A stretch of DNA of 64,000 nucleotides from Escherichia coli. GTDB taxonomy: Bacteria > Pseudomonadota > Gammaproteobacteria > Enterobacterales > Enterobacteriaceae. Every line of letters starts with the position of its first letter. Position 1 is the stretch's first letter. The stretch lies in NCBI RefSeq assembly GCF_030384885.1, contig NZ_CP128613.1; one strand, 5' to 3'. Positions 1,649 to 25,258 of this stretch are shown one piece after another. The translations under genes and the position numbers were made by a program. The notes below the pieces were generated by a model, which had not been told where the DNA came from, searched no databases, and saw nothing but the letters and a program-made list of their open reading frames with translations.

Positions 1649-1752
1649 GATACTCTTCCTGTCAAAATATAAGAAACGACAATAATAACACGGCCTGCCG
1701 CAATCGTAAGAATGAGACAGGCCGTAAAGTTTGGCGAACAAAAGATGGAACG

Positions 1753-2778
1753 TTAGTCTTGTTGATTAACCTTGCGCTCAAGCGATTTTAAACGCTTGCT
1801 CATGTCATCAATGTTCATCACCAGTGCAGCGGTTTTGCGCCAGACTTTGTTGGGTTGCAGCGGAATGCCTGAGGAATAGACGCCTGGTTCAGTGATGGGA
1901 CGCATCACCATACCCATGCCCGTAACCGTCACTTTGTCGCATATTTCCATATGCCCATTGATTACGCTGGCTCCGCCGATCATGCAGTAACGACCAATTT
2001 TCAGGCTTCCCGCCATAATGACGCCACCGGCAACCGCCGTATTGTCGCCAATCACGACGTTATGTGCAATCTGGCACTGGTTATCAATGATCACGCCATT
2101 GCCAATAACGGTGTCATCCAGCGCACCGCGATCGATAGTAGTACAGGCACCGATCTCCACGCGATCGCCAATAATTACGCGACCAATCTGTGGGATCTTC
2201 ACCCAGTTACCCCGATCGTTGGCATAGCCAAAGCCGTCTGCGCCTACCACTGTTCCGGACTGGATCAGGCAATTCTGACCGATCTGGATCTCATGGTAAA
2301 TGGTTACGTTCGCCCAGAGACGCGAACCTGCACCGATTTTGCTGTTTTTACCTACGAAGCAACCGGCACCGATAATCACGTTATCGCCCAGTTCAACGCC
2401 GGACTCAATCACCGCGTTAGCGCCAATCGATACGTTGTTACCCAGCTTCGCCGTCGCGTCAATCACTGCACTGGGTGCAATGTTCTGCGCAGGCTGCGGC
2501 GTGGTATCTAAAATTTGCGCCATGCGCGCGTAAGTCAGGTAGGGGTTCTTCACTACCAGCGCGGCACTTTTCGCGAAAGGAAGATCGTCCTGGGTCATGA
2601 CAACCGCGGACGCCTGGCACAAGCCTAAATGCTCACGGTATTTTGGGTTAACCATGAACGTGATGTGACCTGTTTGTGCAGATTGCATGGACGCAACGCC
2701 GGTGATGACGATATCGCCATCACCGTGTAGTTCTGCATCCAACTGCTGCGCTAAATCAGCCAGTCGAATTGAAGGCAT
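1753..2778 (-). CDS. lpxD: UDP-3-O-(3-hydroxymyristoyl)glucosamine N-acyltransferase
   Basis: Track ORF 341 aa, [34 protein letters not shown]..., hexapeptide repeats; synteny skp-lpxD-fabZ. Confidence 0.95.
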
Positions 2779-2781
2779 TAC

Positions 2782-3267
2782 TTATTTAACCTGTTTCAGT
2801 ACGTCAGCAGTGATGTCTTTTACATCGCTGCTGTTGTAAGCAACGGCGTTTGCATCAACAACCAGATCGATATCCTGGCTGTTGGCAACGGATTTCACAG
2901 CAGTCTGGATACGAGTAACCAGTTTGCCACGTTCTTCGTTGGAACGACGAGCGCGATCCTGCTCAAAAGCCTGCGCTTTCTGAGCAAAAGTCTGGCGCTG
3001 AGCCATCACGTCTTTTTCCAGTTTGGTACGATCGCTGCCCGCTTTCATGGACTGCAGCTTTTTCATTTTAGCCTGCAGATCGGTTTCCATACGCTGCAGT
3101 TCGCTGGCACGACCTTTGAACTCATTTTCCAGCGTGTTAGAAACACCGGTTTTCTGCGCTACCTGCTGGAACAGGCTGCCCATATTGACGATTGCAATTT
3201 TGTCAGCCGCCTGAGCAGAAGTTGCCAGTGCTAAACCGAGACCTGCAGCTAATAACCACTTTTTCAC
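2782..3267 (-). CDS. skp: Periplasmic chaperone Skp (OmpH)
   Basis: Track ORF 161 aa with signal peptide [20 protein letters not shown] and coiled-coil-like K/Q-rich body; downstream of bamA. Confidence 0.95.
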
Positions 3268-3388: not shown

Positions 3389-5839
<2,451 letters not shown>

Positions 5840-5850
5840 CTAACTAACTC

Positions 5851-7203
5851 TCATAACCGAGAGAAATCATTGAAAAGTGCAAGCCCCATTAACAGCACCA
5901 GCAAAATCGAGCCAATGCGATAACAAAAGTCTTGAACCCGCTCGGATACCGGTCCGCCCTTGATCTTTTCGATCGCAAGGAACAGCAGATGCCCCCCGTC
6001 AAGTACGGGCAACGGAAACAGGTTAATTATCCCTAAGTTCACGCTAATGAGCGCAAGAAACGGCAGGTAATAAACAACCCCGAGTTCCGCTGTCATCCCA
6101 GCCCCCTTGGCGATAGAGATCGGCCCACTGAGGTTGTTCAGTTTCACATCACCGGTGATCAATTTTCCCAGCATACTGACCGTCAGCTTCATCAGCTGCC
6201 ACGTTTTGTCCGTGGCTTCGACGATAGCGTTGAACGGCCCATACTGGCGTACAACTTTATACTCATCTGGCAAAGGAATGACTTTCGGCTCAATACCGAC
6301 AAAACCAATCGCTTTACCATTACCCGGTTTACTCTCCGGGATTAATGTCAAAGACAAGGGACTCCCCTGTCTTTCGATTTCTAACGCTAAGGATTTACCC
6401 GGGTTATCCCGGACAAGCATCACAAAGGTCACCCACTGCGTTAAGGGCTGACCATCGACTTTAACGATCCTGTCGCCTGCTTGCAAACCTGCCTTACTTG
6501 CGGCCGAGTTTGGCTGCACATTTTCCAGTACAGGTTCAATTTGCGGGCCACGAGGACGAATCCCCAGCGAAGATACCGGATCTTCTTTATCAGGCTCAAA
6601 CGCCCAGTGACGTAAATCGAGCTTTACATCCCGTCGTTGGTCGCTGCCAAATGGCGCTACCGTAATGGTGGTGCTTTCATCGCCAATTTTATCGACCAAC
6701 TGCAAACGCACGGCATCCCAATCAGGCGTTTCGATACCATCTACGGCTTTTAGTTCCGTACCTGGTGCAATTTGTGCTTCCGCAGCTATCGAATTGGCTG
6801 CTATTTCGCCAACCACCGGACGTACGCCAGGTACACCAATAATAAAAACCAGCCAGTAGGCAAAGATAGCAAAAATGAAGTTTGCAACCGGACCTGCGGC
6901 AATAATCGCCGCACGTTGGCCGACAGATTTATTATTGAAGGCATGGTGGCGGAGTTCCGGAACAACCGGTTCTGCGCGCTCATCCAGCATTTTGACATAA
7001 CCGCCCAACGGGATCAGGGCGATGACATATTCGGTGCCTAGCTTATCAGTTCGGCGCCAGAGCGCCTTGCCAAAACCTATTGAGAAACGCTCAACGCGAA
7101 CACCACAACGCCGGGCAACCCAGAAATGACCAAATTCATGCACGGTGATAAGTACACCCAGTGCAACGATGAACGAAGCCAAATCCCAGAGAAAACTCAG
7201 CAT
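5851..7203 (-). CDS. rseP: Regulator of sigma-E protease RseP (site-2 protease)
   Basis: Track ORF 5851..7248; HEFGHF zinc-metalloprotease motif, PDZ regions; start moved to internal Met ([26 protein letters not shown]) to give the 450-aa protein I recall. Confidence 0.9.
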
Positions 7204-7214
7204 AATACCTTCCG

Positions 7215-8072
7215 TTAAAGCGTCCTGAATACCAGTAACAACAAGCAAGCAAAGACCGGTACCGCAGCCGTCAGACTATCAATACGATCTAAAATACCAC
7301 CGTGTCCTGGAATTAAATGACCGCTGTCCTTAATTCCTGCTTCACGCTTAAACATACTCTCGGTCAGATCGCCGAGTACTGAGGCTAACGCTGCGACAAT
7401 AGAGCAAATGAGTAAGGTGACGGGAGCGACGTCGAGATTCGCCCACATGCCATAACCCCATGAGATTACCGCTGCAGTCGCGAGTCCACCGATAAAGCCT
7501 TGCCAGGTTTTACCCGGAGAAACCTTCGGTGCCAGCTTATGTTTACCAAACAATTTGCCAAACATATATGCGCCAGAGTCAGCGCCCCATACCAGGATCA
7601 TGACATAGAGCAGCCATATTGCGCCACTGTAATGATTCTCGTCGTAGTGCCAGGCCCGTAACGCCAGCATGCCCCAGAAGAAGGGAACAATGGTTAGCAC
7701 GCCAAAAATAATGCGCAATGTTTTAGAGTTACGCCAGATTGCTGCGGAACCTGGGTAAAACAGCACCAGCAATAGCGCGACAATCCACCAACCCAGCGAA
7801 GCCCAAAGTGAGATTTCAACCAGCGGTTGATGAATATTTCGGTGATATTCCGGCAACAGAAAAAGCATCAGCGCCAACAATAACCCACATAACACCGCCA
7901 ACCATACTCGCTGCGAGCGAGTGGTAAAACCGCTAAGCTGTCCCCATTCCCACGCTGCCAGCATGCAGACCACCAGCGTTACAATGGCGAACCCCACCGG
8001 CGGCAACAGAAACAATGCCGCGATGACGACGGGTATTAACACAAAAGCAGATATCAGGCGATACTTCAGCAA
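7215..8072 (-). CDS. cdsA: CDP-diglyceride synthase (phosphatidate cytidylyltransferase)
   Basis: Track ORF 285 aa, polytopic membrane protein [23 protein letters not shown]...; synteny uppS-cdsA-rseP. Confidence 0.9.
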
Positions 8073-9031: not shown

Positions 9032-10228
9032 TCAGCTTGCGAGACGCATCACCTCTTTTCTGGCGACTTCACGCGCGTTCGCATCAACAGATAACACATC
9101 GTCCACACATTGTGGTTCGCGCATATCCATTTTTTCCAGTACGGATAAATTCAACGCGGCGATATCCGTAAAGCGGATTTGTTGCGCAAGAAAAGCAGCA
9201 ACGGTGATTTCGTTTGCGGCATTCAATGCTGTCGTCGCTGCCTGGCCTTGTTCGAACGCCTCCATCGCCAGTTTCAGGCATGGATAACGATCATAATCCG
9301 GTGCGGCAAATGTCAACGCACTGAGTTTGCAAAAATCGAGCGGCTTCACACCAGAGTTCACGCGATTCGGCCAGGCCATGGTGTGGGCAATTGGCGTACG
9401 CATATCCGGTTCACCCAACTGCGCCAGAACACTGCCGTCCTGATAACGCACCATTGAGTGAATCACTGACTGCGGATGAATCAGCACTTCCATCTGGCTG
9501 GCACTGGCGTTAAACAACCAACGCGCTTCAATGTATTCCAGACCTTTGTTCATCATGGTAGCCGAATCGACAGAAATTTTACGCCCCATCGACCAGTTCG
9601 GATGACGGCAGGCTTGATCCGGCGTCATTGTTGCCAAATCGCGCAATGGCGTCTCACGGAAAGGGCCACCAGACCCGGTAAGCAAAATGGACACCACGCC
9701 ATTTTGCTCAAGGTCAGCGTATCCCAGATTATGCTGGATAGGTTGCGGTAAACTCTGAAAAATGGCGTTATGTTCGCTATCGACTGGTAACAATTGCGCT
9801 TTACTCTGCTTTACGGCGTCCATAAACAGACGTCCGCAAGTGACCAGTGATTCTTTATTGGCCAGCAAAATGGTTTTACCCGCGCGGATCGCAGCAAGCG
9901 TAGGCAACAGGCCAGCTGCGCCAACAATAGCTGCCATCACCTGATCAACATCTTCAAGTGCTGCCATATCACAAGCTGCCTGCTGACCACTTAAGACTTC
10001 GGTGCGGCTACCCTGTTGCTGTAGCATCGTTTTAAGAAGTTTCGCACTCGCTTCATCGTCCATTACGGCATAGCGGGGAGAGAATTCCAGGCACTGCTCT
10101 ACCATGCGAGTGACATTTTTGCCTGCCACCAGCGCAACTACGCGGAAGTGTTCGGGATTATGGCGCACCACGTCCAGCGTGCTGCAACCAATCGAGCCGG
10201 TCGAGCCCAGAATGGTGAGTTGCTTCAT
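9032..10228 (-). CDS. dxr: 1-deoxy-D-xylulose 5-phosphate reductoisomerase
   Basis: Track ORF 398 aa, [39 protein letters not shown]; synteny frr-dxr-uppS. Confidence 0.95.
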
Positions 10229-21404: not shown

Positions 21405-22829
21405 TTACTGCATTAACAGATAGATGGTGCTGTCGCCGCGCTGAATATTCAGTGCCAGCACAGACGGTTTGCTGTCGAGAACTTTACGCAGTTCAGCGAT
21501 GTTTTTCACTGCCTGCTGGTTCGCACCAATAATCACATCACCTTTCTTCAGGCCGATCTGCGCAGCCGGAGTGCCCGTTTTCACGTTGTTCACCACCACG
21601 CCCTGATCTTTGCCTTTGTTGCTCATCTCAGCGCCTTCAATGCCGTTGAAGATGGTGCTGGAATCAACCTGATTCTGGCTGCTCTGCTGCAGTTCCAGGT
21701 TCACGTTAACCTGCTTCCCGTCGCGCAGTAAGCCCAGGGTCAGTTTGCTGCCTACCGGCATAGTGCCCACCTGAGCACGCAGTGCGGCAAAGCTGCTGAT
21801 TGGCTTACCGTTCAGTGAGGTGATCACATCACCCGCTTTAATGCCCGCTTTCGCGGCGGAAGAGTTCGGCAGAACCTGGCTTACAAAAGCACCGCGCTGG
21901 GCGTCAACTTTCATCGCTTTCGCCAGATCGGAGTTCAGCTCAGTGCCCATAATACCCAGCTCACCACGTTTCACCTGGCCGTATTCCACCATCTGCGAGG
22001 TCAGGTTTTTCACCATGTTGCTCGGGATAGCAAAACCGATACCGATGTTTCCGCCGTCCGGTGCGAGGATCGCGGTGTTGATACCAATCAGTTCGCCGTT
22101 CAGGTTAACCAGCGCGCCACCGGAGTTACCACGGTTGATCGCAGCATCGGTCTGGATGAAGTTTTCGTAGTTTTCAGCGTTCAGGCCGCTACGTCCCAGC
22201 GCAGAGACAATCCCGGAAGTTACCGTCTCGCCCAGACCAAACGGGTTACCAATTGCTACGGTGTAATCACCCACGCGCAGTGCATCAGAATCCGCCATCT
22301 TAATTGCGGTCAGGTTTTTCGGATTCTGGATCTGGATCAGCGCGATATCAGAGCGCGGATCTTTGCCAACCATCTTCGCCTCGAACTTACGACCATCGCT
22401 CAGCTGGACTTTAATCACCGTCGCGTTATCAACAACGTGGTTGTTGGTGACGACATAGCCTTTATCGGCATCAATGATGACGCCGGAACCCAGCGCCATG
22501 AATTTCTGTTGCTGGCCGCCGCCATTACCGCCCTGGCCCCCCTGGCAGAACGGAGAGCTCTGGAACGGAGAACCTTCCTGGCAGAACGGAGAATCATCAC
22601 CGAAGAACTGCTGGAAATTACGCGGCATACGCGGCGTATTAACGGTTGTGCTACCTTCTACGTTAATGCTGACCACTGAAGGCATCACCTTTTCGAGCAT
22701 CGGTGCAAGGCTTGGCATCTGCTGGGCTGTCGTTGCTGAAGAAGTCTCAGCCGCCGTTGCAGAGAGCGGAGATAACGCCAAACCTAAACTCAGAGCCAGT
22801 GCACTCAGTGCTAATGTGGTTTTTTTCAT
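21405..22829 (-). CDS. degP: Periplasmic serine endoprotease DegP (HtrA)
   Basis: Track ORF 474 aa; signal peptide, trypsin-like GNSGGAL active-site motif, two PDZ domains. Confidence 0.95.
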   Translation of the reverse strand: MKKTTLALSALALSLGLALSPLSATAAETSSATTAQQMPSLAPMLEKVMPSVVSINVEGSTTVNTPRMPRNFQQFFGDDSPFCQEGSPFQSSPFCQGGQGGNGGGQQQKFMALGSGVIIDADKGYVVTNNHVVDNATVIKVQLSDGRKFEAKMVGKDPRSDIALIQIQNPKNLTAIKMADSDALRVGDYTVAIGNPFGLGETVTSGIVSALGRSGLNAENYENFIQTDAAINRGNSGGALVNLNGELIGINTAILAPDGGNIGIGFAIPSNMVKNLTSQMVEYGQVKRGELGIMGTELNSDLAKAMKVDAQRGAFVSQVLPNSSAAKAGIKAGDVITSLNGKPISSFAALRAQVGTMPVGSKLTLGLLRDGKQVNVNLELQQSSQNQVDSSTIFNGIEGAEMSNKGKDQGVVVNNVKTGTPAAQIGLKKGDVIIGANQQAVKNIAELRKVLDSKPSVLALNIQRGDSTIYLLMQ

Positions 22830-22871
22830 GTATTTCAGTCTCGATTAACAGATAACGCAAAATTGCTGTGT

Positions 22872-22902
22872 TCTTCAGATTCGTTTTATAGCGCGAAGTT
22901 CC
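22872..22902 (-). promoter_or_regulatory. Candidate sigma-E (RpoE) promoter of degP
   Basis: On the minus strand GGAACTT (-35-like) then 16 nt then TCTGA (-10-like); degP is a classic sigma-E target; no experimental confirmation possible here. Confidence 0.45.
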
Positions 22903-22958
22903 GAACTAAAGTTTCTGCAAAAGGTAAAAATTTATTGTTCGTCTTTACAAAAGCCTGG

Positions 22959-24476
22959 TTATTGTTCTACGGCCATCAGACGTCGGTATTCATCCCACGC
23001 ATAGAGGTCGGTCATACCGCTGATATAATCCTGTAGCAGGCGGCAGCGGTAATAATATTCCCATAGCGGAAACTCAGGAGAATCTGACGGTAATTTACTG
23101 ACAGCCTCGACATAGGCCAGCCGATGGCGCGTCGAGAGTTTGTGGAATAAGCGCGATTCAATAGGGAAACGTTTCACCCGTTCTTTTTCTACCAGTTCAG
23201 TAAAGTCTGATAACGACAGGCTTAATAAAGGGCGATAAATCTCTAATAATCCGCTAATGACCCGATAGCCCTGCAATTCAAGCTGCTCGACATCTGGATG
23301 GCTAAACACATGTTTTACAGCGACATTTTTATATAGCTTTAGAAGATCGCTGCATTCGCTGGCATCTTCCAATAATGCATGATTAAACGTTCCGGCGAAA
23401 ATCGCAGGCAGATTATCAATAAATCGTTGTGCCGCGTAGGGTACCAGTTTATTTAGGGTGTTTACCCGTAAATACATAAAAAACTGATCTTCCGTACTGC
23501 GGCTTAAACTATTTGAGCGTGATTTTTCCCAGGCATTTTCAACCACCAGCGAAAAGAGCGAACCTTTCTCATGCTGGCCCCACGCTTCGTGCAAATGATG
23601 ATAAAGCTGCTCAACGCTGAATATTCTTTTCTCTACCGCATCTTCAAGATCTGCCACACAATAGGAGATGTCGTCGGCAGCTTCCATAATCCACGTTAAT
23701 GGAAAACGGCTGTAAAGCGCCAATTTAAGTTCTTTACGCAACCGGGCAATATAGGCTTCTTCAGAAAGATAATAACCTGGTTTTTTCATTAAATAGTGAT
23801 GCGTCTCAGGCGTTTCGCCACGCCACCACGCCGGACGGGTATATTTTAAAATACCGCCAACCTGTGCCCAGGTGAGATTCATCCGCATCAATGTATGCAC
23901 CAGACGAATACCTTGTGCATTCCCCTCAAAATGGCATAAGTCCTGACGAATTTTGCGCCGCAGTTCGTTAAGCGGTTCTTCCCCTTCCCGTAAACGTAAT
24001 GCCGCCACGCAGCAGCGATCATCGGTCAGAGGCTGGCTTTCGGCATCAGCCGGATACAAACGCTGGCGAAACCAGTCATTTATCGCCGCTTCACCAAAAT
24101 GGCCAAACGGCGGATTGCCGATATCGTGCATCAGGCATGACATCTCAACAATACTTTCAAAGGGGCCGGTCAGTTCATCCAGACCATAATCTTCCAGTAA
24201 TTTAAGCTCTTTCAGACGGCTTAAAATTTCTTTGGCGATGTAGCGCCCCACCTGCTGGACTTCCATCGAGTGGGTAAGACGCGTGCGCACGGCGGCATTG
24301 CGCTCCAGTGGAAAAACCTGGGTCTTTTGTTGCAGACGACGAATTGCCGGAGAGTTGATGATACGCCCGCGATCGCTCTCGAAGATTCGCAGGATCTCAT
24401 GTTCGGTTTTAACGCCCTGCGGTGAACGGTAACGACGATGCCAGTTTATTTTTTTTCGGAAATCAATCTGTGCCAT
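22959..24476 (-). CDS. dgt: dGTP triphosphohydrolase
   Basis: Track ORF 505 aa, HD-domain motifs ([14 protein letters not shown]). Confidence 0.95.
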
Positions 24477-24559
24477 GTCCTCTCCCGCGTGAGAAATACG
24501 CTTCCCCGTAAGCGCATGGTAAACTATGCCTTCAAATCGGGCTTATCGCGAGTAAATCT

Positions 24560-25258
24560 ATGAAAATCGGCATCATTGGTGCAATGGAAGAAGAAGTTAC
24601 GCTGCTGCGTGACAAAATCGAAAACCGTCAAACTATCAGTCTGGGCGGTTGCGAAATCTATACCGGCCAACTGAATGGAACCGAGGTTGCGCTTCTGAAA
24701 TCGGGCATCGGTAAAGTTGCTGCGGCACTGGGTGCAACTCTGCTGTTGGAACACTGCAAGCCAGATGTGATTATTAACACCGGTTCTGCCGGTGGCCTGG
24801 CGCCAACGCTGAAAGTGGGCGATATCGTTGTCTCGGACGAAGCACGTTATCACGACGCGGATGTCACGGCATTTGGTTACGAATACGGTCAGTTACCTGG
24901 CTGCCCGGCTGGCTTCAAAGCTGACGATAAACTGATCGCTGCCGCTGAGGCCTGCATTGCCGAACTGAATCTTAACGCTGTACGTGGCCTGATTGTCAGC
25001 GGCGACGCTTTCATCAACGGTTCTGTTGGCCTGGCGAAAATCCGCCACAACTTCCCGCAGGCCATTGCTGTAGAGATGGAAGCGACGGCAATCGCTCATG
25101 TCTGCCACAATTTCAACGTCCCGTTTGTTGTCGTACGCGCCATCTCCGACGTGGCCGATCAACAGTCTCATCTTAGCTTCGATGAGTTCCTGGCTGTTGC
25201 TGCTAAACAGTCCAGCCTGATGGTTGAGTCACTGGTGCAGAAACTGGCACATGGCTAA
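24560..25258 (+). CDS. mtnN: 5'-methylthioadenosine/S-adenosylhomocysteine nucleosidase
   Basis: Track ORF 232 aa, [36 protein letters not shown]. Confidence 0.95.

Follow-up and report, generated by a model that had tools for sequence, protein, structure and literature searches.

A sigma-E promoter, a conserved CpxR block and an HtrA thermometer-family leader in the dgt–degP intergenic region of Escherichia coli

The product of degP (htrA) is the main periplasmic protease-chaperone, and the degP promoter is a classic reporter of envelope stress, through sigma-E as well as through Cpx. Sigma-E promoters follow rules (Rhodius 2006, PMC1312014) that call for a -35 element GGAACTT, a -10 element TCAAA, a strongly preferred 16-nt spacer, a discriminator of 5 or 6 nt, and 26 or 27 nt from the -35 element to +1; spacers are in general weakly conserved, and DegP is placed in the core sigma-E regulon. 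In K-12 MG1655 the degP start has been mapped to 180844, giving a 40-nt 5' UTR (Kim 2012, PMC3415461; Cho 2014, PMC3923258), and ChIP-chip in the same strain background found the degP region occupied by sigma-24 and also by sigma-38 (Cho 2014, PMC3923258). As to Cpx control, a compilation of 41 known CpxR sites includes two at degP, both credited to De Wulf 2002 (PMC9600279 Table S1), and degP is induced 26.6-fold in cpxA24 and 32.4-fold with pNlpE, whereas deleting cpxR brings the induction down to 6.4-fold (PMC9600279 Table 1). Finally, the Salmonella htrA leader is a fourU thermometer, in which UUUU and the Shine-Dalgarno sequence pair in a hairpin that has a 5-nt loop and a single bulged C. 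SHAPE, backed by reporters, found this hairpin closed at 30 °C but opened at 42 °C, and its melting between these temperatures raises translation (PMC5602114). In the papers and reviews consulted, thermometer function is credited to Salmonella only.

How does a degP upstream region that was first read from its letters alone compare with these systems? The window analyzed here is a 64,000-nt stretch of an E. coli genome (contig NZ_CP128613.1). Its minus-strand ORF 21405..22829 encodes the DegP serine endoprotease (NCBIfam equivalog NF008189, 934 bits), the regulated gene, with the ATG at 22829..22827, and the minus-strand ORF 22959..24476 encodes the dGTPase Dgt (NCBIfam equivalog, 893 bits). 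Positions 22830..22958 are therefore exactly the dgt–degP intergenic gap. A 231-nt query around the region matched 5424 of 5426 complete E. coli genomes, 5385 of them at an identity of at least 99%, and the annotation beneath the match was dgt and degP in every case. A scan for intrinsic terminators over 22600..23200 found none between dgt and degP, so that read-through out of dgt is possible. We hold with high confidence that the region is the native E. coli degP control region, comprising a sigma-E promoter, CpxR input and a thermometer-family leader. All of these elements are already known, either from textbooks (the sigma-E promoter and Cpx control) or from curated resources (RF02700, start sites and site lists). 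The region thus offers no new biology and serves as a positive control, in which a sequence-only reading located a mapped promoter to the base. That reading, the first-pass annotation, was right but incomplete: it lacked the thermometer-family leader, a second start at 22876 and a CpxR site inside dgt. The points that are left are narrow and for specialists, namely the holoenzyme that CpxR assists and temperature sensing by the E. coli leader.

The first-pass annotation had described GGAACTT-16 nt-TCTGA about 45 nt before degP on the minus strand, and the coordinates agree with this in every detail. The -35 element GGAACTT (-33..-27) lies at 22896..22902 and matches the Rhodius consensus at 7/7 positions; it is followed, likewise on the minus strand, by the 16-nt spacer CGCGCTATAAAACGAA at 22880..22895 and the -10 element TCTGA (-10..-6) at 22875..22879, and the gap from TCTGA to the degP ATG is 45 nt (22874..22830). 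TCTGA agrees with TCAAA at three of five bases, the T, the C and the final A being kept, and the spacing is exactly 16 nt. Might these be chance matches in A/T-rich intergenic DNA, with no regulatory function? Short motifs of this sort do come up by chance: simple arithmetic gives about 125 expected copies of GTAAA alone for the window, and the sigma-E pattern with one mismatch has 0.29 expected matches. The exact GGAACTT-N16-TCTGA, however, was found once in the 64-kb window against an expectation of 0.01 from dinucleotide shuffles; when one mismatch was allowed, the sole match in the window was still the exact one at degP. This is also the sole place in the window where a 7/7 GGAACTT has TCnnA 15–17 nt downstream.

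Alignment to K-12 puts MG1655 start 180844 (Kim 2012 and Cho 2014) at 22869 on the minus strand, an A. The Kim 2012 supplement gives the degP upstream 51-mer, which ends ...GGAACTTCAGGCTATAAAACGAATCTGAAGAACA (PMC3415461). This +1 is the sixth nucleotide past TCTGA, so that the discriminator measures 5 nt, and 26 nt separate the start from GGAACTT. The base at +1 is the same in all 80 Enterobacteriaceae compared. The first-pass annotation had proposed comparison with mapped degP starts and had named an inconsistent start as what would refute it; the K-12 start fits sigma-E spacing and agrees with the elements, and the interpretation therefore survives its own refutation test. The sigma-E architecture that it had assigned to degP is thus borne out by the mapped K-12 start, the sigma-E geometry and the sigma-24 ChIP-chip signal, with the -35 element, a -10 element inside the allowed 15–19 nt and an A/G start (from K-12 data) placed 5–6 nt past the -10 and 25–28 nt past the -35 element all present. 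The start-site and ChIP data all come from K-12, which has two spacer bases unlike those of the window: just past the -35 element the window has CGCG and K-12 has CAGG (22894 and 22893). The window carries the majority allele, its 60-nt core promoter being identical in 4024 of 5424 E. coli genomes; the remaining 1400, the K-12 form among them, match at 95–99%. On this account the sigma-E holoenzyme recognizes GGAACTT-N16-TCTGA and initiates at the A at 22869, and this input couples degP to outer-membrane-protein misfolding stress.

Conservation was measured as a footprint over degP loci of 80 Enterobacteriaceae with 83–99% protein identity, motifs and spacings being counted in 77. Identity across species is 0.97 for the -35 element and 0.94 for the -10 element, against a baseline of 0.51–0.53 in the discriminator, the stretch after the dgt stop and the dgt third-codon positions. 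The -35 element is GGAACTT in 59 of the 77 species, GGAACTA in 13 and TGAACTT in five; the -10 element is TCTGA in 67, TCTTA in seven and TCTCA in three; and spacer length is kept at 16 in 74. Near-invariance over 80 species, where a neutral-like baseline would be about 0.5, joins the mapped start at the predicted distance, the sigma-24 ChIP signal and the expectation of 0.01 for the exact motif in arguing against a chance origin, which we accordingly reject and to which we give practically no weight.

In three Buttiauxella species GGAACTT and the upstream CpxR block are kept and there is no TCnnA at 15–17 nt. Here, some 110 nt before degP, the sequence reads GGAACTTAGCGCCTCAATTGTCACTCTATATT, so that this genus has a rearranged -10 region. 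Intestinirhabdus alba has some 80 nt extra right after the dgt stop, ending directly before the conserved TTTTGTAAAG, and this insertion shows where the conserved control region stops on its upstream side.

A second start, the G within TCTGA at 22876 (minus strand), corresponds to MG1655 180837, which Cho 2014 (supplement 6) reports in stationary phase (condition S). The read counts are 28 for 180837, in stationary phase, and 20 for 180844, in the exponential and glutamine conditions, and both starts are assigned to sigma-24 (PMC3923258). Salmonella htrA also has UTRs of 47 and 40 nt, an offset of 7 nt (PMC5602114). In Klebsiella, where the starts are 207608 and 207617, the upstream one (207608) falls on the G of its TCTGA, 9 nt before the sigma-E-type start. 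What produces the upstream start? Probably another holoenzyme, sigma-70 or sigma-S, initiates at 22876 in the same DNA by way of GCTATAAA, which lies within the sigma-E spacer at 22892..22885. The identity of GCTATAAA over the 80 species is 0.90, on a par with the -35 and -10 elements, even though the spacers of sigma-E promoters usually show little conservation. This would be accounted for if the -10 of another holoenzyme overlapped the spacer, and GCTATAAA is possibly the -10 region for start 22876.

This opens a variant in which CpxR activates not the sigma-E holoenzyme but a nested sigma-70 or sigma-S promoter (start 22876, -10 GCTATAAA/TAAAAC), so that the two envelope-stress pathways would act on two interdigitated, mutually exclusive promoters in the same DNA. 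The K-12 start 7 nt upstream in stationary phase, the sigma-38 ChIP signal, the corresponding upstream starts in Salmonella and Klebsiella and the conservation of GCTATAAA all speak for it, and the 6.4-fold induction of degP without CpxR is consistent with separable inputs. On the other side, a sigma-70 consensus scan of 22600..23200 (a generic scan, uninformative about a sigma-E promoter) returned no promoter, including none for start 22876, and nothing resembling TTGACA-N16-18-TATAAT serves that start. As read from the sequence, neither TATAAA nor TAAAAC has the final T, and there is no evident -35-like hexamer. TAAAAC is the E. coli hexamer in the best register; at its last base, where the key T would stand, the species divide about evenly between C and T. 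Moreover, Cho 2014 gives both starts to sigma-24. The fixed distance from the CpxR block to GGAACTT cannot discriminate between the two promoters because they overlap. We regard the nested promoter as a doubtful, though not negligible, proposal; it would refine the sigma-E account and not contradict it.

Upstream of the promoter the first-pass annotation had pointed to a stretch with GTAAA at about 22925..22950, where CpxR sites would be expected. The GTAAA is at 22948..22944 and proves to be the first half of a listed CpxR site, 'degP1' (GTAAAGACGAACAAT, 22934..22948, minus strand; PMC9600279 Table S1, credited there to De Wulf 2002). A second GTAAA follows in inverted orientation at 22928..22924, where the degP strand reads TTTAC. 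The block as a whole, GTAAA-GACGA-ACAAT-AAATT-TTTAC (22924..22948, minus strand; -79..-55), has inverted half-sites that share the central ACAAT, and GTAAA-N15-TTTAC occurs once in the window against 0.08 expected. A second listed site, the distal 'degP2' (GTAAATTACCGTCAG), lies inside dgt at 23084..23098 on the minus strand (-229..-215; PMC9600279 Table S1).

A position-weight-matrix scan for CpxR had also been suggested at first reading. Our matrix was built from 39 published sites, with both degP sites left out; its training sites score 2.3–19.3 bits (median 13.5). The intergenic site did score, but weakly: degP1 reached 5.9 bits, rank 207 of 127,972 window positions, and degP2 reached 12.0 bits, rank 8 in the window. 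Given the low score and rank of degP1, the matrix scan alone is thus unconvincing for the intergenic site. Conservation reverses the matrix ranking. Over 80 Enterobacteriaceae the block has a mean identity of 0.92, with GTAAA and TTTAC each at 1.00, whereas degP2 stands at 0.55, which is lower than the average for dgt as a whole and about the level of its third-codon positions (0.53). Of 77 species, 71 have TTTAC offset from GTAAA by 20 nt and 76 have GGAACTT at 46 or 45 nt from GTAAA, so the half-sites are both conserved and fixed in position relative to the promoter. The sequence is not a tandem GTAAA-N5-GTAAA direct repeat: it runs GTAAA-GACGA-ACAAT, with a degenerate second half-site, and either strand reads GTAAA-N5-(ACAAT/ATTGT), the two reads sharing the central pentamer. 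Because invariant pentamers stand inverted at a fixed spacing, we read the site as a quasi-palindrome and not as a canonical direct repeat.

Could the block instead act mainly as a UP-like element rich in A/T, or be bound by some other protein, with Cpx control exerted chiefly through the dgt-internal site at 23098..23084? The distal site does outscore the proximal one (12.0 versus 5.9 bits), the center of the block, AATAAATTTTT, is A/T-rich, and A/T-rich UP-like sequence precedes sigma-E -35 elements (Rhodius 2006, PMC1312014). Yet the invariant bases are those of the two GTAAA pentamers and exclude the A/T tract, the distal site is kept no better than dgt third-codon positions, and the proximal site is in the published CpxR list (PMC9600279). 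In addition, in one natural E. coli strain an IS1 lies between the distal site and a control region that is intact in other respects. We consider this explanation very unlikely. The preferred reading is that phosphorylated CpxR, bound to GTAAA-N15-TTTAC, would raise transcription under Cpx-sensed envelope stress. The 45/46 nt that separate the block from the -35 element are fixed, which suggests that CpxR touches RNA polymerase on one face of the helix. Both the occupancy of the block by CpxR in this strain and the identity of the holoenzyme that it helps are matters that we infer; literature searches on the CpxR/sigma-E mechanism at degP and on htrAp1-3 returned nothing useful.

The strain with the insertion is E. 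coli 2017-19-1CC (NZ_AP027854.1; positions 1748..2445 of the extracted locus), one genome among 5424. The element sits past the dgt stop codon and ahead of the CpxR block of degP, and the control region is intact from the stop codon onward.

Several other motifs in the window deserve mention. The first reading had remarked that rseP, bamA and skp share the window with degP, and all three were located there on the same strand, at 5851..7248, 3389..5821 and 2782..3267, respectively. A sigma-E-like GGAACTA-N16-TCGAA lies at 6730..6757 (minus strand), within the rseP coding sequence and upstream of bamA; it is probably the known sigma-E promoter of bamA (yaeT). The top match to the CpxR matrix in the window, at 17.7 bits, is a perfect GTAAA-N5-GTAAA, GTAAAGCAGAGTAAA, at 9800..9814 (minus strand). 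It falls upstream of uppS-cdsA-rseP-bamA, inside the 398-aa ORF 9032..10228 (taken from its place and length to be dxr), and is absent from the list of 41 known CpxR sites. Second in rank, at 15.9 bits, is a CpxR-like box, GTAAATCTATGAAAA, at 24552..24566 (plus strand) in the divergent dgt/mtn intergenic region; its sequence is the predicted candidate 'dgt -76' of a genome screen (PMC9600279).

Downstream of +1, the 40-nt leader matches the Rfam HtrA thermometer family RF02700 (cmscan 77 bits, gathering threshold 52, E about 1e-16). The match spans the full model (1-46), starts exactly on the mapped +1 and covers the 5' UTR and the first two codons (22824..22869, minus strand). The only other Rfam hit, to a snoRNA, was discarded as noise (21.9 bits against a gathering threshold of 70, E = 1.8). 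The predicted hairpin, at 22839..22862 on the minus strand, consists of UUUUG[C]GUUA, a loop UCUGU and UAAUCGAGA, and has the Salmonella architecture, with 22862..22859 as the fourU, 22857 as the bulged C and GAGA at 22842..22839 as the Shine-Dalgarno sequence. This fourU–Shine-Dalgarno hairpin is the minimum-free-energy structure at 30–37 °C, with a z-score against shuffles of +1.05. Its predicted stability at 37 °C is -3.0 kcal/mol versus -5.8 for Salmonella, and the predicted probability that the Shine-Dalgarno sequence is paired is 0.3–0.5 versus 0.96. Among 44 distinct leader sequences there was no covariation in the hairpin, 78.4% of cells being paired versus 78.3% in shuffles, and RNAalifold predicted no consensus structure for the leaders; the hairpin register (78.4%) does exceed slid controls (62% and 55%) in the same 44 leaders. 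Membership of the E. coli leader in RF02700 is established at the level of sequence. Thermometer function in E. coli, and in this strain, we infer: the leader could form a short fourU hairpin on GAGA that would modulate ribosome access with temperature.

Taken one step further, the nested promoter and the leader can be combined. There would then be two interdigitated promoters, one for sigma-E with start 22869 and one dependent on CpxR, of the sigma-70 or sigma-S type, with start 22876 and -10 GCTATAAA, together with an E. coli thermometer partly disabled by a U-to-C change at 22838. We think this composite unlikely. Were the promoters indeed interdigitated, Cpx and sigma-E would be rivals for a single stretch of 30 bp.

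How closely, then, does the region resemble its described relatives? The nearest is K-12 degPp, which has the same locus, -35 element, -10 element, +1, CpxR sites and leader and is under joint sigma-E (RpoE) and CpxAR control; between the stop codon of dgt and the ATG of degP, the two differ at the two adjacent spacer bases and nowhere else. Relative to the canonical CpxR box GTAAA-N5-GTAAA of cpxP, ppiA and psd, degP likewise has a GTAAA pentamer upstream of its promoter and is a listed target, but its second pentamer is ACAAT and its second perfect GTAAA is on the opposite strand, 20 nt off.

Among the Salmonella Typhimurium starts htrAp1/p2/p3 (Lewis 2009, via PMC5602114), a pair 7 nt apart matches K-12 180844/180837. 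Salmonella has, in addition, a far-upstream htrA start inside dgt (215- or 449-nt UTR; PMC5602114), and none of the Cho 2014 entries listed, from 179338 to 180837, is a K-12 degP start inside dgt. As to the leader, E. coli shares with the Salmonella enterica htrA thermometer that RF02700 describes (Klinkert 2012, Choi 2017) the 40-nt UTR and, in its predicted fold, the fourU–Shine-Dalgarno pairing, the bulged C and the 5-nt loop. At the base of its stem an A·C stands in place of the Salmonella A-U, its loop has a U for the Salmonella C, and the E. coli hairpin has about half the predicted stability, with its Shine-Dalgarno sequence predicted to be only partly sequestered.
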